Shown here: in pieces, positions 43,972 through 47,668 of the stretch
Position numbering within the stretch: the first letter of the stretch is position 1
Layout of the letters: every line of letters starts with the position of its first letter
Source of the DNA: Candidatus Hydrogenedentales bacterium
Lineage (GTDB): Bacteria; Hydrogenedentota; Hydrogenedentia; Hydrogenedentales; JAEUWI01
Direction: 5' to 3'
Assembly (NCBI GenBank): GCA_942492815.1
Contig: OW818658.1
Coordinates: 5,402,198 to 5,466,197 of the forward strand
Length of the DNA: 64,000 nucleotides
Program-made: the position numbers and the translations under genes
The notes under the pieces: model-generated
Databases searched by the model: none
The model's input: only the letters and a program-made list of their open reading frames with translations
Told to the model about the DNA's origin: nothing

Positions 43972-45129
43972 GTGCCTTCCCGAAGTTTAGCAGGGACCCC
44001 GCAGGTGGTACAATGCGCCGCAGTTCGCCAGCGCAAGCACCAGCACCCCGGCAGCGGGTACGTGGCAGTCCCGAGGAGCAGTACCATCAAGATCACCGAG
44101 AACGAGACCCTCGCCGAGCGCAAGCAGGCGATTCTTGCGCACCTGAACCAGTTCCCCTTCCGCCCCGCGTGGTGGTTGCGCAATTGCCACGCCCAGACCA
44201 TCTGGGGACCCGTGTTCCGCCGCCCACCGGCCATGGACTACCACAAGGAAGTGTGGGACACGCCCGATGGCGACGAGCTCGCCCTCTATTTCTTTCCCGG
44301 CGACGCGGACAAGCCCTGGGTGCTGCTGTTGCACGGTCTCGAAGGCCACATCAATTCCTTTTATCTGCCCGGCTTCAACCAGGCCTTCCACGCCCTCGGC
44401 TGGAATGTGGTCACCCTGATCTTTCGGTCCTGCGACGGCGGCATCAACAAGGCGAAGCGCGTCTACCACATGGGCGAAACCTCCGACCTCGATTTCGCCG
44501 TGCGTCAGCTTCGCGAAGAGCGCGGCGTGGACAAGCTCTACATCGCGGGCATGTCCCTTGGCGCAAACGTCCTCTGCAAGTGGCTCGGCGAACTCGGCGA
44601 CAACGTGCCGGAGTACGTGGCCGGTACGGCCGCCCTTTCCCCGCCCTTTCGCCCAGAGATCTCCGTCAGCCTCTTCGAGAAGGCCTTCTTCGGCATCTAC
44701 AACCGCCGCTTCCTCGGCACCCTCATCCCCAAGGCGCTGGAGAAAGAGCGCCAATTCCCCGGCTGCATCGACGTGGAGAAAGTGCGCAACTGCAAAAGCT
44801 TCCACGTCTACGACACCGAAGTCACCGCCCGCCTCCACGGCTACCGCGACGCCGTGGACTACTGGGAACAAGTCGGCTGCCACCAGTTCCTCGCGGACAT
44901 CCGCGTGCCCACCCTCCTCAACACCTCCGCCGACGACGCATTCAATCCCGCCGACACCATCCCCCGCGAAATCGCCGACGCCTCGGACTACCTCTATCCC
45001 CTCTGGACCACCCACGGCGGCCACGCGGGCTTTGTCTACGGTGCCTGGCCCTGGAAGGCAAAGTACTGGCAGGAAGAACAATTGGTGCGCTTTTTTGTGG
45101 CGCTCGACGACCCAACGGGACCGTCCTGA
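43972..45129 (+). CDS. YheT-family alpha/beta hydrolase (start uncertain, possibly GTG 44062)
   Basis: Motifs HAQTIW, WDTPDGD, LHGLEG, GMSLG, SADD, GGHAGF. Confidence 0.88.
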   Translation: MPSRSLAGTPQVVQCAAVRQRKHQHPGSGYVAVPRSSTIKITENETLAERKQAILAHLNQFPFRPAWWLRNCHAQTIWGPVFRRPPAMDYHKEVWDTPDGDELALYFFPGDADKPWVLLLHGLEGHINSFYLPGFNQAFHALGWNVVTLIFRSCDGGINKAKRVYHMGETSDLDFAVRQLREERGVDKLYIAGMSLGANVLCKWLGELGDNVPEYVAGTAALSPPFRPEISVSLFEKAFFGIYNRRFLGTLIPKALEKERQFPGCIDVEKVRNCKSFHVYDTEVTARLHGYRDAVDYWEQVGCHQFLADIRVPTLLNTSADDAFNPADTIPREIADASDYLYPLWTTHGGHAGFVYGAWPWKAKYWQEEQLVRFFVALDDPTGPS

Positions 45130-45423
45130 ACGCCAGGCCCCTCAACAAAGAGGCGTGATCGAAGACCAAATCACTCCACCCAGACCGATCAAGCCCCACT
45201 GCGCGTTCGGGACCGTCCCGCGCTTTTGAGGGACGTACCGCCGCACAGGCCCCCTGAGCACCAATGTAACCCCCACACCCTCGCCCCGACCCCAGTCGAG
45301 CGAAGCCTGCTCCAAAGCGGCGGCATGTCCCCGTGGATGTTAAATCCCGACGCGGGGCAATCCAATCCGCCTCATCGTTCTGAACGAGTGCTGGAGCCTC
45401 CCGCGCAGTGTTGATCTCTCTGG

Positions 45424-45467
45424 TTGACGGTTGGTCGATATTCGGCGACAATAGCGAGACAAGGAGG
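45424..45467 (+). promoter_or_regulatory. Putative sigma70 promoter TTGACG-N17-GACAAT and RBS AAGGAGG
   Basis: -35 at 45424-45429, -10 at 45447-45452, RBS at 45461-45467. Confidence 0.5.
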
Positions 45468-45473
45468 CAAACC

Positions 45474-45662
45474 ATGGAAAAGAGAGACGAGTTCAAACCC
45501 TTAATTGAATGGCCCACCCATGGGGAACATAAGCGCTGTCAAGAATCAACGGCGCTCTTGAATATACTCGCCATAGATCGAAAAGAGATCGAGACCGGAG
45601 AATACCAGCTCGCATCCGAGTTTTTTGATGAGTTGCGCAGAGAGAGGCAGGCCAATCCATGA
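45474..45662 (+). CDS. Small protein (62 aa) resembling the C-terminal half of Phd/YefM-type antitoxins
   Basis: Strong RBS. QESTALLNILAIDRKEIETG..ASEFFDELRR resembles antitoxin C-terminal helices (recognition only). Confidence 0.45.
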   Translation: MEKRDEFKPLIEWPTHGEHKRCQESTALLNILAIDRKEIETGEYQLASEFFDELRRERQANP

Positions 45663-45853
45663 ACTGGGAATACAAGACCATCAAGATCGGTGCAACGGGC
45701 TTCATGGGGGGCAAAGTGGACGAGATAGAACTTGACACGCTAATGAATCGACTCGGTTCGCAGGGGTGGGAACTGACCACGGCTTTCGACACGAATCAAT
45801 CATACGGACAAACCCGAGACGTCGTGGTGATCTTCAAGCGGCCCAGAGGATAG
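45659..45853 (+). CDS. DUF4177 family small protein
   Basis: WEYKTI...LDTLMNRLGSQGWEL...IFKRP. ATGA-coupled to the upstream ORF. Confidence 0.85.
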   Translation: MNWEYKTIKIGATGFMGGKVDEIELDTLMNRLGSQGWELTTAFDTNQSYGQTRDVVVIFKRPRG

Positions 45854-45861
45854 CGCGGCGT

Positions 45862-45949
45862 GGGGACTGCCTCCCGCCGCAACAGAACCTCCGCCGCGCA
45901 AGCGCTCCAGCACCTTCCATCGGCGGGTGGCTGTACACAGGAGAAACGG
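45862..45949 (+). repeat. Half copy of the 185-bp element found at 51690-52059
   Basis: GGGGACTGCCTCCC.CCGCA ... CGCCGCG.AAGCG ... CGGCGGGTGGCTGTAC....GAGAAACGG is collinear with the reverse complement of 51970-52059. Confidence 0.7.
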
Positions 45950-46360
45950 TAATACGGGGGACGGTCCCCGCACGCCTGGCGGCCCTTCCTCCACGAAGTC
46001 ATCCCGGATTGGTCAGGTAAATTTCGAAAGGCCAGGCGGCCTTTCGTGCAGGACGGTCCCCGCGAGCCGACGGGACCGTCCTGAACGCAAGGGCACTCGA
46101 CAACGGGTCGTGAACCTGTGCCAAACACGCAAGCCCGAACAAAGTAAAGCCTGCCAGGCGTTCGGGACCGTCCCGTGAAGTTTTACTACGGGGGACGGTC
46201 CCGCACGCCTGGAAGCCCGCCCTCAACAGAGGCGTCTTTAATTGGTCGAGTGAATCCCTTGCGCTCCAAGGGGCCTTTCGTTCGGGACGGTCCCCTTGGG
46301 GTGAATCCTACTGTCGGATTGCAGCGTCTAACCCATTAACGCAACCCAAAGGACACCGCC

Positions 46361-47668
46361 ATGCCTACCAAGAACCTCATAATCCTCGTGTTTGCCCTGA
46401 CCTCCCTGCTGTCCCTGCCCGCCACCGCCGAGACCTTCAAAGCGGGCTTCGCCAAGGCCGATATCACCCCGACGGCCCCCATGCCCATGTGGGGCTATGG
46501 CGCGCGGCACGATGTCCTGTCCCAAGGCGTGCGCGATCCGCTTTTTGCCAAGGCCGTGGTCGTGGAGGCCGGGGACCAGAAAGTGGCCCTTGTGGGGCTG
46601 GATCTGGGCCGCTCGCCCGATGCCGCCATGATGGACCGCATCCGCGCCGCCGTGAAGGCCACCTCGGGCGTGACCTTCGTCATGCTGTCGGGCTCCCACA
46701 CCCACCACGGGCCGGTGCTGGAGATGCAGGACAAGGAGGGGATGGGCAAGGGCAAGTTCGACGACGCCGTGGCCTATGTGAAGACCCTGGAAGAAAAACT
46801 CATCGCTGTGATCAACGACGCGGCCGCCTCCGCGCAGGATGCGCGCATCGGCTGGGGCTCGGCCATGGTGGATCGCAACCGAAACCGCCACAAGAAATTC
46901 GACCCAAAACCCACCGACCCTGAATTGAGCGTGCTTCGCTTTGACGACCTCGCGGGTAAGCCCATCGCGCTGATGATCAACTTCGCGGCCCACCCGACCA
47001 TGCTGCCGGGCGAGGATCTGCGTTTCTCCGCGGAGTGGCCGGGCCAGATGATGTACACGGTGGAAGAGGGCCTGGGCACGAACGCGGGCTTCCTCCAGGG
47101 CGCGGCGGGCGACATGTCCTGCAAGCCGACGGATACCACGAAGGACATCGAATCCTTCGGAAAGGCCATCGGCGCGGAAGTGATCGAGATCGCTAAAGCC
47201 ATTGAAACCAAAGTGCCCGAAAATCCCCGCATTCAGGGCATGGATGAAGACTTCGATTTCAAGACCCGCATCCCGCTGGACAATCCCATGACCCTGGGAG
47301 TGCTCTCCACCGCCTTCTTCCCCGAGCTCGCCGCTGCCGCCGTCGACGCGATGAAGGGCGACCGCATTACGCCCCACCTCACTACGATTCTCATCAATCA
47401 GGAGCTCGCGCTGGTGGGCGGCTCGGGCGAGTTCTTCTGCGATCATTCCAATCGCCTGAAAGAGCGCGCCTGGGGCCTGAAGACGATCTTCGTGGGCTAT
47501 TGCAATGGCCACCACATGTACTTCCCCACCATAGAAGGCGCGTCCGTCGGCGGTTATGGCGCGGATGCCACCGTGAGCTGGGTCCCCGTCGGCGCGGGCG
47601 AGCAGATGATGGACAAGGCCCTCATCAACCTCTACACGATGCTGGGAAAATACGTGTTAAAGCTGTAG
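46361..47668 (+). CDS. Neutral/alkaline ceramidase-like secreted amidohydrolase
   Basis: Motifs AGFAKADITP, DPLFAKA, SHTHHGP, NFAAHPT, FLQGAAGD, GEFF, GYCNG..YFPT. Confidence 0.8.
   Translation: MPTKNLIILVFALTSLLSLPATAETFKAGFAKADITPTAPMPMWGYGARHDVLSQGVRDPLFAKAVVVEAGDQKVALVGLDLGRSPDAAMMDRIRAAVKATSGVTFVMLSGSHTHHGPVLEMQDKEGMGKGKFDDAVAYVKTLEEKLIAVINDAAASAQDARIGWGSAMVDRNRNRHKKFDPKPTDPELSVLRFDDLAGKPIALMINFAAHPTMLPGEDLRFSAEWPGQMMYTVEEGLGTNAGFLQGAAGDMSCKPTDTTKDIESFGKAIGAEVIEIAKAIETKVPENPRIQGMDEDFDFKTRIPLDNPMTLGVLSTAFFPELAAAAVDAMKGDRITPHLTTILINQELALVGGSGEFFCDHSNRLKERAWGLKTIFVGYCNGHHMYFPTIEGASVGGYGADATVSWVPVGAGEQMMDKALINLYTMLGKYVLKL

Follow-up and report, generated by a model that had tools for sequence, protein, structure and literature searches.

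The window, a 64,000-nt stretch of a closed 7.9-Mb Hydrogenedentales chromosome, contains a cluster of inverted-repeat units next to two forward-strand genes. An alpha/beta-hydrolase (YheT-like) gene is located at 43972-45129 (ORF; Pfam Abhydrolase_1/Hydrolase_4), and a neutral-ceramidase-like gene (ORF and profile match) lies downstream of the array at 46361-47668. The four units, which had been recognized in a first-pass annotation of the sequence, are all present. Each is exactly 103 bp long with GGGAC...GTCCC ends, and their order is + (gap) - + -. The pattern GGGACSGTCC was matched 13 times in the window, always within these four units, and shuffled sequences would be expected to give 0.72 matches. 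The units are members of a genome-wide family, termed family A. Their alternating orientation, which is defined by an asymmetric central base, is an addition to the first reading, as are the sister-family unit and the partial copy described below.

Unit 1 (45117-45219, + strand) carries a-type arms (TGAACG/CGTTCG). The final four codons and the TGA stop of the hydrolase ORF fall inside this unit, so that unit positions 11-13 serve as the stop codon, as had been proposed. The hydrolase C-terminus is different in G001, a relative without unit 1. A T-run tail (GCGCTTTTGA, 45220-45229, +) follows unit 1. Next is a unit of 102 bp from sister family B (GGGACGTACCGCCGC...GCGGCGGCATGTCCC, 45230-45331, +), which has many genome-wide matches. 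Family B is also the family found around the RAYT-like genes at 5.99 Mb.

The promoter and two small genes reported between units 1 and 2 were found again. The putative promoter is a sigma-70-like consensus match (TTGACG-17-GACAAT, 45424-45452, +) before the small genes. The first gene is a 62-aa ORF (45474-45662, +), corresponding to the C-terminal half of a Phd/YefM-like antitoxin that is full-length in the relatives G007 and G002. The second is a DUF4177 gene (45659-45853, +), whose start overlaps the stop of the preceding ORF (ATGA). Then comes an incomplete copy of a different dispersed repeat that starts with GGGAC (GGGACTGCCTCC..., approximately 45863-45937, +) and has matches in several genomes.

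Unit 2 (45958-46060, - strand) has c-type arms (TGCACG/CGTGCG), one of which contains a one-base bulge. It is joined head-to-head by an 11-nt linker (46061-46071) to unit 3 (46072-46174, +), which has a-type arms and a positional orthologue in G002. A 17-nt tail-to-tail linker (GTGAAGTTTTACTACGG, 46175-46191) separates unit 3 from unit 4 (46192-46294, -). Unit 4 has hybrid arms (CGAACG in the 5' arm, CGTGCG in the 3' arm), a combination that is unique in the genome; the related units in G002 are those labelled B and C there. The mosaic structure suggested for the interiors was weakly supported, the clearest case being unit 4 with its arms of different subtypes.

Distribution and hairpin structure of family A

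Family A includes 66 units with an exact core in this genome, and 88 to ~93 units were recovered by looser searches. The unit length is 98-105 bp with a mode of 102-103 bp. The strict length noted at the locus is thus tight genome-wide, but the value of exactly 103 bp does not hold. All copies are intergenic, and none of the 88 lies inside a called gene. Dispersed near-copies were found 2.3 Mb apart, and the replication-strand bias is weak (34/88 units). Family A is present in four of the nine species of the genus and in none of 32 other genomes of the order. Among 185,579 species genomes scanned, only two Hydrogenedentales MAGs contain it. Within the Hydrogenedentales, its range is a single subclade of one genus. 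The multi-copy, strictly intergenic and hairpin-forming units, with their alternating clusters and fixed linkers, bear out the REP/REPIN/BIME-like nature assigned to them initially.

Each unit consists of two inverted arms of 16-24 nt, an interior of ~55 nt and a short T-rich tail, flanked by CGAC/CGAG and GCG/CCG. On the strand reading GGGAC-C-GTCC, the arms form a terminal stem of five pairs, one pyrimidine-pyrimidine mismatch and ten more pairs including a T-G wobble. The conserved inverted ends of the first reading correspond to this 16-position stem. Pairing at positions 1-5 and 7-16 holds in 97-100% of the units, and 87 of 88 have a Y-Y mismatch at position 6. At position 11, 72 units have T-G and 14 have C-G; at position 12, 82 have G-C and 5 have A-T; and at position 13, 45 have A-T and 38 have C-G. 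The exchanges A-T/C-G and G-C/A-T are compensatory, and the folding z-score is about -4.

The interiors are divergent, as had been noticed within the window: across the genome, BLAST matched 69 of the 88 interiors to no other unit. Among 15 positional orthologue pairs, the arms are 92% identical and the interiors 71%, and the interiors drift at about the neutral rate. The length difference within these pairs is at most 3 bp, which agrees with the proposal that length is conserved despite sequence drift. For example, the positional orthologue of unit 1 in G007 has an equal length, with 44/48 identical arm positions (the outer 16 nt being identical) and 43/55 identical interior positions. At the window locus and at other loci, the presence of units varies from species to species.

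Two other kinds of element were considered and rejected. A CRISPR-like array is not consistent with conserved parts that are inverted rather than direct, with interiors that are unmatched elsewhere in the genome, or with the strand composition bias. Integron attC sites are not consistent with the arms (c-type units have no GTT and a-type units have GTTCGGG), the alternating orientation, or the linkers of 11-17 nt.

Sister families and Y1 transposase genes

The GGGAC...GTCCC ends define a genus-wide superfamily with units of 99-104 bp and family-specific arms. All four class-2 Y1 genes in this genome are flanked by GGGAC...GTCCC units, and so are most of their homologues in the genus. The flanking units are 99-104 bp long for three of the four genes and ~330 bp long for the fourth. 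They belong to sister families B/C, D/E and the 7.83-Mb family; the Y1 gene at 7.83 Mb, which had seemed bare, has distinct flanking repeats of its own. The Y1 proteins match Pfam Y1_Tnp and NCBIfam REP_Tyr_transpos, and the translated ORFs carry the HuH (NHIHIV) and Y---NP (YVELNP) motifs. Pfam identified only Y1_Tnp in the Y1 proteins of the genus, with no C-terminal HTH in the ~70-aa tail. A PDB sequence search with one Y1 protein gave no match. Homologous Y1 genes outside the genus are accompanied by units of 71-80 or 106 bp, or by none under a strict test. The ~102-bp unit size is therefore specific to the genus rather than universal.

Family A was found within 3 kb of none of the 12 Y1 loci in this genome. 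Across 30 Y1 loci of the genus it adjoins one, on one side only (G007 contig C149). The family A units there are co-oriented with the neighbouring htpG and not with the transposase, and this Y1 gene has no orthologue in the present genome. A Y1 gene was also found on none of 12 metagenome contigs bearing family A. The RAYT/Y1 link that the first-pass annotation had anticipated thus holds for the sister families, which share the GGGAC/GTCCC ends, but not directly for family A. Since family A brackets none of the Y1 genes covered in this genome, in the genus or on the metagenome contigs, it is the sister families that suggest its mobilization by a Y1 enzyme.

Taken as a whole, the units are probably a non-autonomous, REP/BIME-like palindromic family that was spread by a Y1 enzyme and kept behind stop codons, with the local two-gene islet not being cargo. 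A RAYT/TIRYT-like HUH-Y1 enzyme may have acted in trans on the single-stranded hairpin, and the enzyme gene of family A itself might since have been lost from this genome. Copies would survive directly behind the stop codons of co-oriented genes, where they may be tolerated, and the hairpin with its T-run there is probably a 3'-end or terminator structure. Such a role could explain why the arms are kept while the interiors decay. Clusters might grow and shrink as units are added and as the 11-bp cores recombine or undergo deletion between them. It counts against this explanation that no clean empty or filled site with defined borders was found, both candidates being partial deletions or core-only states.

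Gene ends, solo cores and the two-gene islet

Behind co-oriented genes, 28 units begin no more than 10 nt past the stop codon or overlap the gene end by 13 nt, and only two have their 3' end beside a convergent gene end. Seven units, including unit 1, donate their own TGA, so that seven genes in the annotated genome end in a repeat-supplied stop codon. A TTT is found within 12 nt on the 3' side in 62 of 88 units, on the sense side only, and an AAA on the 5' side in 6 of 88. It is possible, though rather unlikely, that the units are a host RNA element: a 3'-end hairpin that terminates transcription or protects mRNA, with RNA-selected arms and any link to transposases being historical. The 28 versus 2 co-orientation with upstream genes and the T-run on the transcribed side only would both be expected. 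Read on the sense strand, the fixed non-Watson-Crick pair is T-G (G-U), where the other strand would give A-C, and the arms of orthologous copies are conserved while the interiors drift. A gap of 4 nt separates the long stem from the T-run, a spacing less than ideal for an intrinsic terminator of the classical type. The 3' arm and tail can also fold as a small GC-rich hairpin that directly abuts the T-run.

Other features do not fit an RNA element of the host. Roughly two in three units have no gene end next to them, and many units are in clusters of alternating orientation. Genome-wide, there are 17 tail-to-tail pairs with linkers of 15-17 nt and seven head-to-head pairs with linkers of 6 or 11-12 nt, and the paired units are usually of different arm subtypes (a-type with c-type). 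A hairpin 0-10 nt past a stop codon would lie inside the footprint of the terminating ribosome. Five of the nine species of the genus manage without family A. The Rfam search of the region identified no family, its sole match being a spurious miRNA (E = 0.018).

A related and more speculative proposal, which we regard as doubtful, is that in this genus the ~102-nt module is not just selfish DNA in decay but a 3'-end device kept by the host 0-10 nt behind stop codons. It would be read on the sense strand with its obligatory Y-Y mismatch, and its length would be held by its reader, possibly a domesticated Y1/TIRYT protein. If this were true, RAYT-like enzymes would both install and maintain gene-end punctuation. 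Family A is well suited to the question of host 3'-end function versus transposase activity because of its frozen arms, its neutral interiors, a length held to ~3 bp and a sense-strand position close to stop codons.

The cores may also be read as a target site. Read along one strand, the two cores of a unit share their central base (66 units with C,C and 10 with T,T, against 1 with C,G), so at this base they are direct rather than inverted repeats. Each unit might then be a miniature transposon of ~92 bp that inserts specifically into the 11-bp palindrome GGGAC-N-GTCCC and duplicates it; the cores would represent a duplicated target site instead of belonging to a hairpin. We consider this improbable, although on the point of the direct-repeat cores it is simpler than spread by a Y1 enzyme. 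Solo cores are found 33 times in the genome, 30 of them intergenic, and another mobile element (terminus GAATGGCACTAAC) abuts the same GGGAC-N-GTCCC cores. At 6.8068 Mb one solo core occupies exactly the place of a complete unit in a related metagenome contig, and G007 has a degenerate solo core in place of window units 2-4. However, a solo core would also be expected from deletion between two 11-bp direct repeats, and G007 has neither core nor unit at the 6.8068-Mb site. Sister families B-E retain the outer half-sites only, without a direct repeat, and the genome contains no longer element with the family A subterminal arms that could be a parent IS.

It is very improbable that the 11-bp cores are duplex sites bound by a dimeric nucleoid or regulatory protein of the host, with the 92-bp core-to-core spacing reflecting the geometry of the complex. 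The cores are near-perfect palindromes with ~100% conservation, and within the genus their spacing varies little, even between families that differ in their arms. A symmetric duplex site, however, would not be expected to show strand-specific features, here a T-G wobble, a T-run on one side only and co-orientation with genes. The corresponding units in other genera measure 71-80 or 106 bp, and no candidate protein was identified.

The window locus was also compared with five other species. In the outgroup G004, an antitoxin/ParE-type islet is found at the matching place, between the hydrolase and ceramidase genes, without any unit, and in G007 the islet is present with a unit on the left only. 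G001 lacks everything between the outer ends of units 1 and 4. In G002 the units are arranged differently, and an additional 1.4-kb gene is present that also occurs in G004. The insert, whose presence in relatives had been proposed for comparison, is absent in one of them and present without repeats in the outgroup. The sequence comparison indicates that the two-gene islet is older than the repeats, a variable toxin-antitoxin-type islet rather than cargo, and that the repeats sit at gene ends in and around this pre-existing islet. Cargo capture, which the first-pass annotation had suggested, is not supported, since the outgroup has the islet without repeats and one relative has no islet at all. 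A composite element or pair of attC-like sites, with units 1 and 4 as inverted ends that captured the two genes, can practically be dismissed: these units are mutually inverted and delimit the absence in G001, but the layouts in G004, G007 and G002 contradict it, as do the 11- and 17-nt linkers, which are too short for cassettes, the alternating orientation and the lack of GTTRRRY/RYYYAAC boxes. In annotation, the cassette should not be taken for mobile cargo.

Comparison with known repeat systems

Family A consists of GGGAC-tagged REP/BIME-like repeats; these are of a known kind, and the family itself is new. Bacterial MITEs such as Correia/NEMIS, ERIC and RUP are co-transcribed with adjacent genes, and some provide stop codons or terminators. 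Family A resembles them in being a non-coding repeat of ~100 bp with terminal inverted repeats. It differs in having no parent insertion sequence with matching ends and no ordinary short target duplication, unless the 11-bp core is counted, and in that its terminal 11-mer is itself a palindrome.

Closer similarities are found with the REP/BIME sequences of enterobacteria and the REPINs of Pseudomonas and their RAYTs (Nunvar 2010, PMC2817692; Bertels & Rainey 2011, PMC3116915). Like these, family A is intergenic, forms hairpins and is found after gene ends, and its arms persist over speciation. The alternation of two oppositely oriented subtypes across linkers of fixed length recalls BIMEs, and the two inverted arms at a fixed distance, folding as one hairpin, recall REPINs. 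However, family A ends in GGGAC/GTCCC and has no GTAG or CGTC tag. REPIN spacers are conserved, but the family A interior is close to saturation and lacks self-complementarity. The stem also has a fixed Y-Y mismatch, the host belongs to the Hydrogenedentota, and no cognate RAYT is flanked by family A copies.

The inverted repeats of TIRYTs share the motif GGGG[AT][CG]A[CG] (Di Nocera, De Gregorio & Rocco 2013, PMC3733652). TIRYTs have been equated with TnpA-Y1 subclass 2.1, for which no REP-like sequences were reported (Quentin et al. 2018, PMC6006769); the enzyme subclass relevant to family A is thus one published as lacking REP-like partners. In family A, three features differ from the TIRtron/TIRYT systems: there is no flanking Y1 gene in this genome, the unit is a fixed-length ~102-bp doublet with a drifting interior, and the Y1 proteins of the genus have no Pfam-detected C-terminal HTH. 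The similarities are the GGGAC-type terminal tag, which is close to GGGG[AT][CG]A[CG] (PMC3733652), the sister families that flank RAYT-like Y1 genes on both sides, and the moderately abundant families that occur as singles, dimers and clusters. The c-type units read GGGGACCG in 7/8 and sister families C and E read (G)GGGACAG, and a-type units have a C before GGGAC. An orphan but well-delimited family, from a host phylum without a cultured model, is thereby added to the little-studied GGGAC-tagged repeats that are linked to TIRYT-type tyrosine transposases.

Repeat units in the window and along the chromosome

The window contains four 103-bp units with GGGAC...GTCCC ends, at exactly the positions claimed by the first-pass annotation: unit 1 (45117-45219), unit 2 (45958-46060), unit 3 (46072-46174), and unit 4 (46192-46294). 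A window scan found the 10-mer GGGACSGTCC 13 times versus 0.72 expected, always inside these units. The terminal 11-mer (the core, GGGAC-N-GTCCC) is palindromic except for its central base, and this asymmetry gives each unit an orientation. The central base on the plus strand is C in units 1 and 3 (+) and G in units 2 and 4 (-); the array thus reads +, a cassette of two small genes, -, +, -. The linkers among units 2-4 are 11 nt (head-to-head) and 17 nt (tail-to-tail). Two further repeats had been overlooked. A 102-bp unit of a sister family, family B (GGGACGTACCGCCGC...GCGGCGGCATGTCCC), occupies 45230-45331, 10 nt past unit 1, and its family also surrounds two RAYT-like transposase genes at 5.992 and 5.998 Mb of the genome. 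Between the end of the DUF4177 gene and unit 2, at about 45863-45937, a different dispersed repeat that starts with GGGAC (GGGACTGCCTCCCGCCGC...) is present as a partial copy, with matches in three related genomes (G002, G004, and G007).

The four units belong to a genome-wide family, termed family A. On the whole closed chromosome of this Hydrogenedentales bacterium (7.93 Mb), core-pair spacing has a sharp peak at 88-93 nt, giving 66 exact-core units of 99-104 bp. About 93 full-length copies were found by profile search and 88 by one-mismatch search. The 88 units measure 98-105 bp (29 at 102 bp, 26 at 103 bp); the proposed tight length was confirmed genome-wide, but not a strict 103 bp. The exact pattern occurs in four of the genus's nine species; 32 other genomes from the order all lack it. 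A scan of 185,579 species genomes recovered family A from two Hydrogenedentales MAGs alone, and 12 metagenome contigs, all from one data set, also carry it. Family A is real and well delimited, and its host phylum is unusual.

Most units (72 of 88) are located within 3-7 Mb of the chromosome, around the point at about 6.18 Mb where cumulative GC skew is lowest, which is likely the origin of replication; the skew peaks at about 2.76 Mb. Direct tandem arrays occur at 4485611-4485980 (three copies, period 134 bp) and 4850716-4851538 (four copies, period about 240 bp) of the source chromosome; with their near-identical interiors, these arrays are local duplications. Another mobile element, with the terminus GAATGGCACTAAC(TTAAGG), abuts 11-bp GGGACNGTCCC cores at chromosome positions 744014, 4225306, 5854952, 5856865, and 6034025, and at 516-540 of locus L124; these cores seem to be targets for its insertion.

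Pairing was counted over the 88 units, read on the strand GGGAC-C-GTCC. Stem positions 1-5 are complementary to the five bases at the far end, 87 units have a pyrimidine-pyrimidine mismatch at position 6, and positions 7-16 are paired in 97-100% of units; pairing falls off thereafter. At position 11, 72 units have T-G and 14 have C-G. At position 13, 45 units have A-T and 38 have C-G, and on this basis the arms fall into two subtypes: a-type (TGAACG/CGTTCG) and c-type (TGCACG/CGTGCG). Double changes at positions 12 and 14 are rarer. The interiors, about 55 nt between the arms, have no conserved fold; 69 of 88 lack detectable similarity to other units or the rest of the genome, and global identity among interiors barely exceeds that of shuffled controls. 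The mosaic interiors described earlier were weakly borne out, with the best support from unit 4, the sole unit in the genome whose arms differ in subtype.

A tail with the consensus (G/C)CG(Y)TTTTAAAAGCG follows on the 3' side, where 62 of 88 units have TTT no more than 12 nt from the end, versus AAA on the 5' side in six. An inverted core, solo or belonging to another unit, lies 14-17 nt past the tail in 55 of 88 units. Genome-wide, there are 17 tail-to-tail pairs (linkers 15-17 nt) and seven head-to-head pairs (6 or 11-12 nt), mostly joining one a-type and one c-type unit. These clusters are BIME-like.

Gene ends and evolution of the units

Genes were called with a simple codon-usage caller, which reproduced the genes of the window. 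All 88 units are intergenic. In 28, the 5' end lies 0-10 nt past the stop of a co-oriented gene or overlaps the stop by exactly 13 nt; only two have the 3' end equally near a convergent gene end. The T-G wobble and the T-run thus lie on the sense strand with respect to the upstream gene. The TGA at unit positions 11-13 serves as the gene's stop in seven cases. Unit 1 is among them: it provides the final codons of the YheT-like (alpha/beta-hydrolase) gene and, as previously claimed, its TGA stop.

Family A is best read as a REP/BIME-like, GGGAC-tagged non-autonomous repeat. A RAYT/TIRYT-type enzyme would have spread it by acting on the single-stranded hairpin, and copies would have persisted downstream of stop codons, with the hairpin and T-run probably serving there as a 3'-end structure. 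This reading as a whole is considered rather probable. Its main rival, that the units are RNA elements serving the host alone, draws on largely the same evidence and is considered unlikely.

Fifteen positional orthologue pairs were compared between the source genome and its relatives (about 75-94% identity over the aligned locus). Arm identity is 92%, with the outer 16 nt nearly invariant, and interior identity is 71%; the arms are thus kept while the interiors drift. The length differs by 0 bp in eight pairs, 1 bp in four, and 2-3 bp in three. For family A alone, the length constraint is estimated to exceed by just a moderate margin what a low rate of indels would produce. Families of the genus with quite different arms all measure 99-104 bp, which argues for a genuine length constraint within the genus; homologous systems outside it measure 71-80 or 106 bp, so the value itself is lineage-specific.

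Comparison of loci shows that units are gained and lost between species. Two units follow htpG in G007, where the source genome has an ordinary hairpin-plus-T terminator. At 6.8068 Mb, a full unit in a metagenome relative is matched by a solo core in the source genome and by neither in G007; at 806 kb only a 16-nt 5' arm remains in the source genome. Two copies 2.3 Mb apart share 86% identity through the interior, which shows that whole units get copied. Alternatively, a unit might be a 92-bp insertion into an 11-bp palindrome that duplicated the core. This would account for the equal central base in both cores (C,C in 66 units, T,T in 10, and C,G in one) and for the solo-core versus full-unit polymorphism. 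However, there is no parent element and no such duplication in the sister families, and deletion between direct cores would yield the same picture; this explanation is thought quite improbable.

The cassette locus in related species

The 62-aa ORF of the cassette (within 45474-45853; compared with L038 4539-5510 and with L041, reverse strand) represents the C-terminal half of a Phd/YefM-like antitoxin; the stop codon of this ORF overlaps the start of DUF4177. The hydrolase-ceramidase interval was examined in other species. The outgroup G004, which has no family A, carries a truncated antitoxin, a ParE-like toxin, a 1.4-kb opposite-strand gene, and two small membrane ORFs, with no units and no DUF4177. 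G007 has unit 1, a family B unit, the full antitoxin, the ParE-like toxin, a small ORF, and DUF4177, with only a degenerate solo core on the right side. G002 has the antitoxin, DUF4177, two units, the 1.4-kb gene, and one unit. In the close relative G001, about 50 bp separate the hydrolase stop from the conserved ceramidase leader (contig C222, 54365-54419; L058); the interval contains neither islet nor repeats, and the hydrolase C-terminus differs. The hydrolase gene is inverted in G003, G005, and G008.

The islet is thus an old, variable toxin-antitoxin-type spot. Units were added at gene boundaries of this pre-existing islet, and the 1.4-kb gene has been lost from the source genome, possibly through recombination between co-oriented units. 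A duplex protein-binding array is poorly supported and very improbable. Cargo capture, or an integron-like system, is likewise poorly supported and the least credible reading: the insert is indeed absent from G001, but nothing points to capture or transport of the two genes by the units, and G004 has an antitoxin/toxin islet with zero units.

Relationship to tyrosine transposases

The source genome has 12 Pfam Y1_Tnp matches, four of which are RAYT-like proteins (208-214 aa) with HuH and Y---NP motifs; the two scanned scored slightly under the NCBIfam cut-off for REP-associated tyrosine transposases. Three of the four genes sit among 99-102-bp GGGAC...GTCCC units with family-specific arms, or have such units on either side (families B/C at 5.99 Mb, D/E at 3.98 Mb). 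The flanks of the fourth, at 7.83 Mb (chromosome 7825351-7826670; L087 1128-2447), are longer and of GGGACAGCGGCGC type: each side has a composite repeat of about 330 bp. These repeats start with GGGACAGCGGCGC, end with GCGACGCTGTCCC, and contain the inner pair GCGCGGCTGTCCTGTCG/CGACAGGACAGCC. Homologues across the genus show the same flanking pattern with still other arms, always of 99-104 bp.

A transposase flanked by family A itself, which the first-pass annotation suggested looking for, was not found in the source genome. The sole adjacency found is one-sided: in G007, a Y1 gene has two family A units directly at its 3' end, both in the same orientation as the htpG gene next to them, and its other side is bare. 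This Y1 gene has no orthologue in the source genome. Family A may have been mobilised in trans by a Y1 enzyme, or its own enzyme may have been lost.

In the literature, the inverted repeats at TIRYT genes have GGGG[AT][CG]A[CG] in common (PMC3733652). Quentin et al. treated TIRYT as equivalent to TnpA-Y1 subclass 2.1, for which they detected no REP-like sequences (PMC6006769). Family A matches the GGGAC...GTCCC superfamily of Y1 flanks in tag, size, and architecture; unlike the sister families, it has no transposase of its own in the source genome. Three traits are worth experimental attention: the invariant mismatch, the position close behind stop codons, and the unit length shared across the genus. 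None of them places family A beyond the REP/BIME/TIRYT framework.
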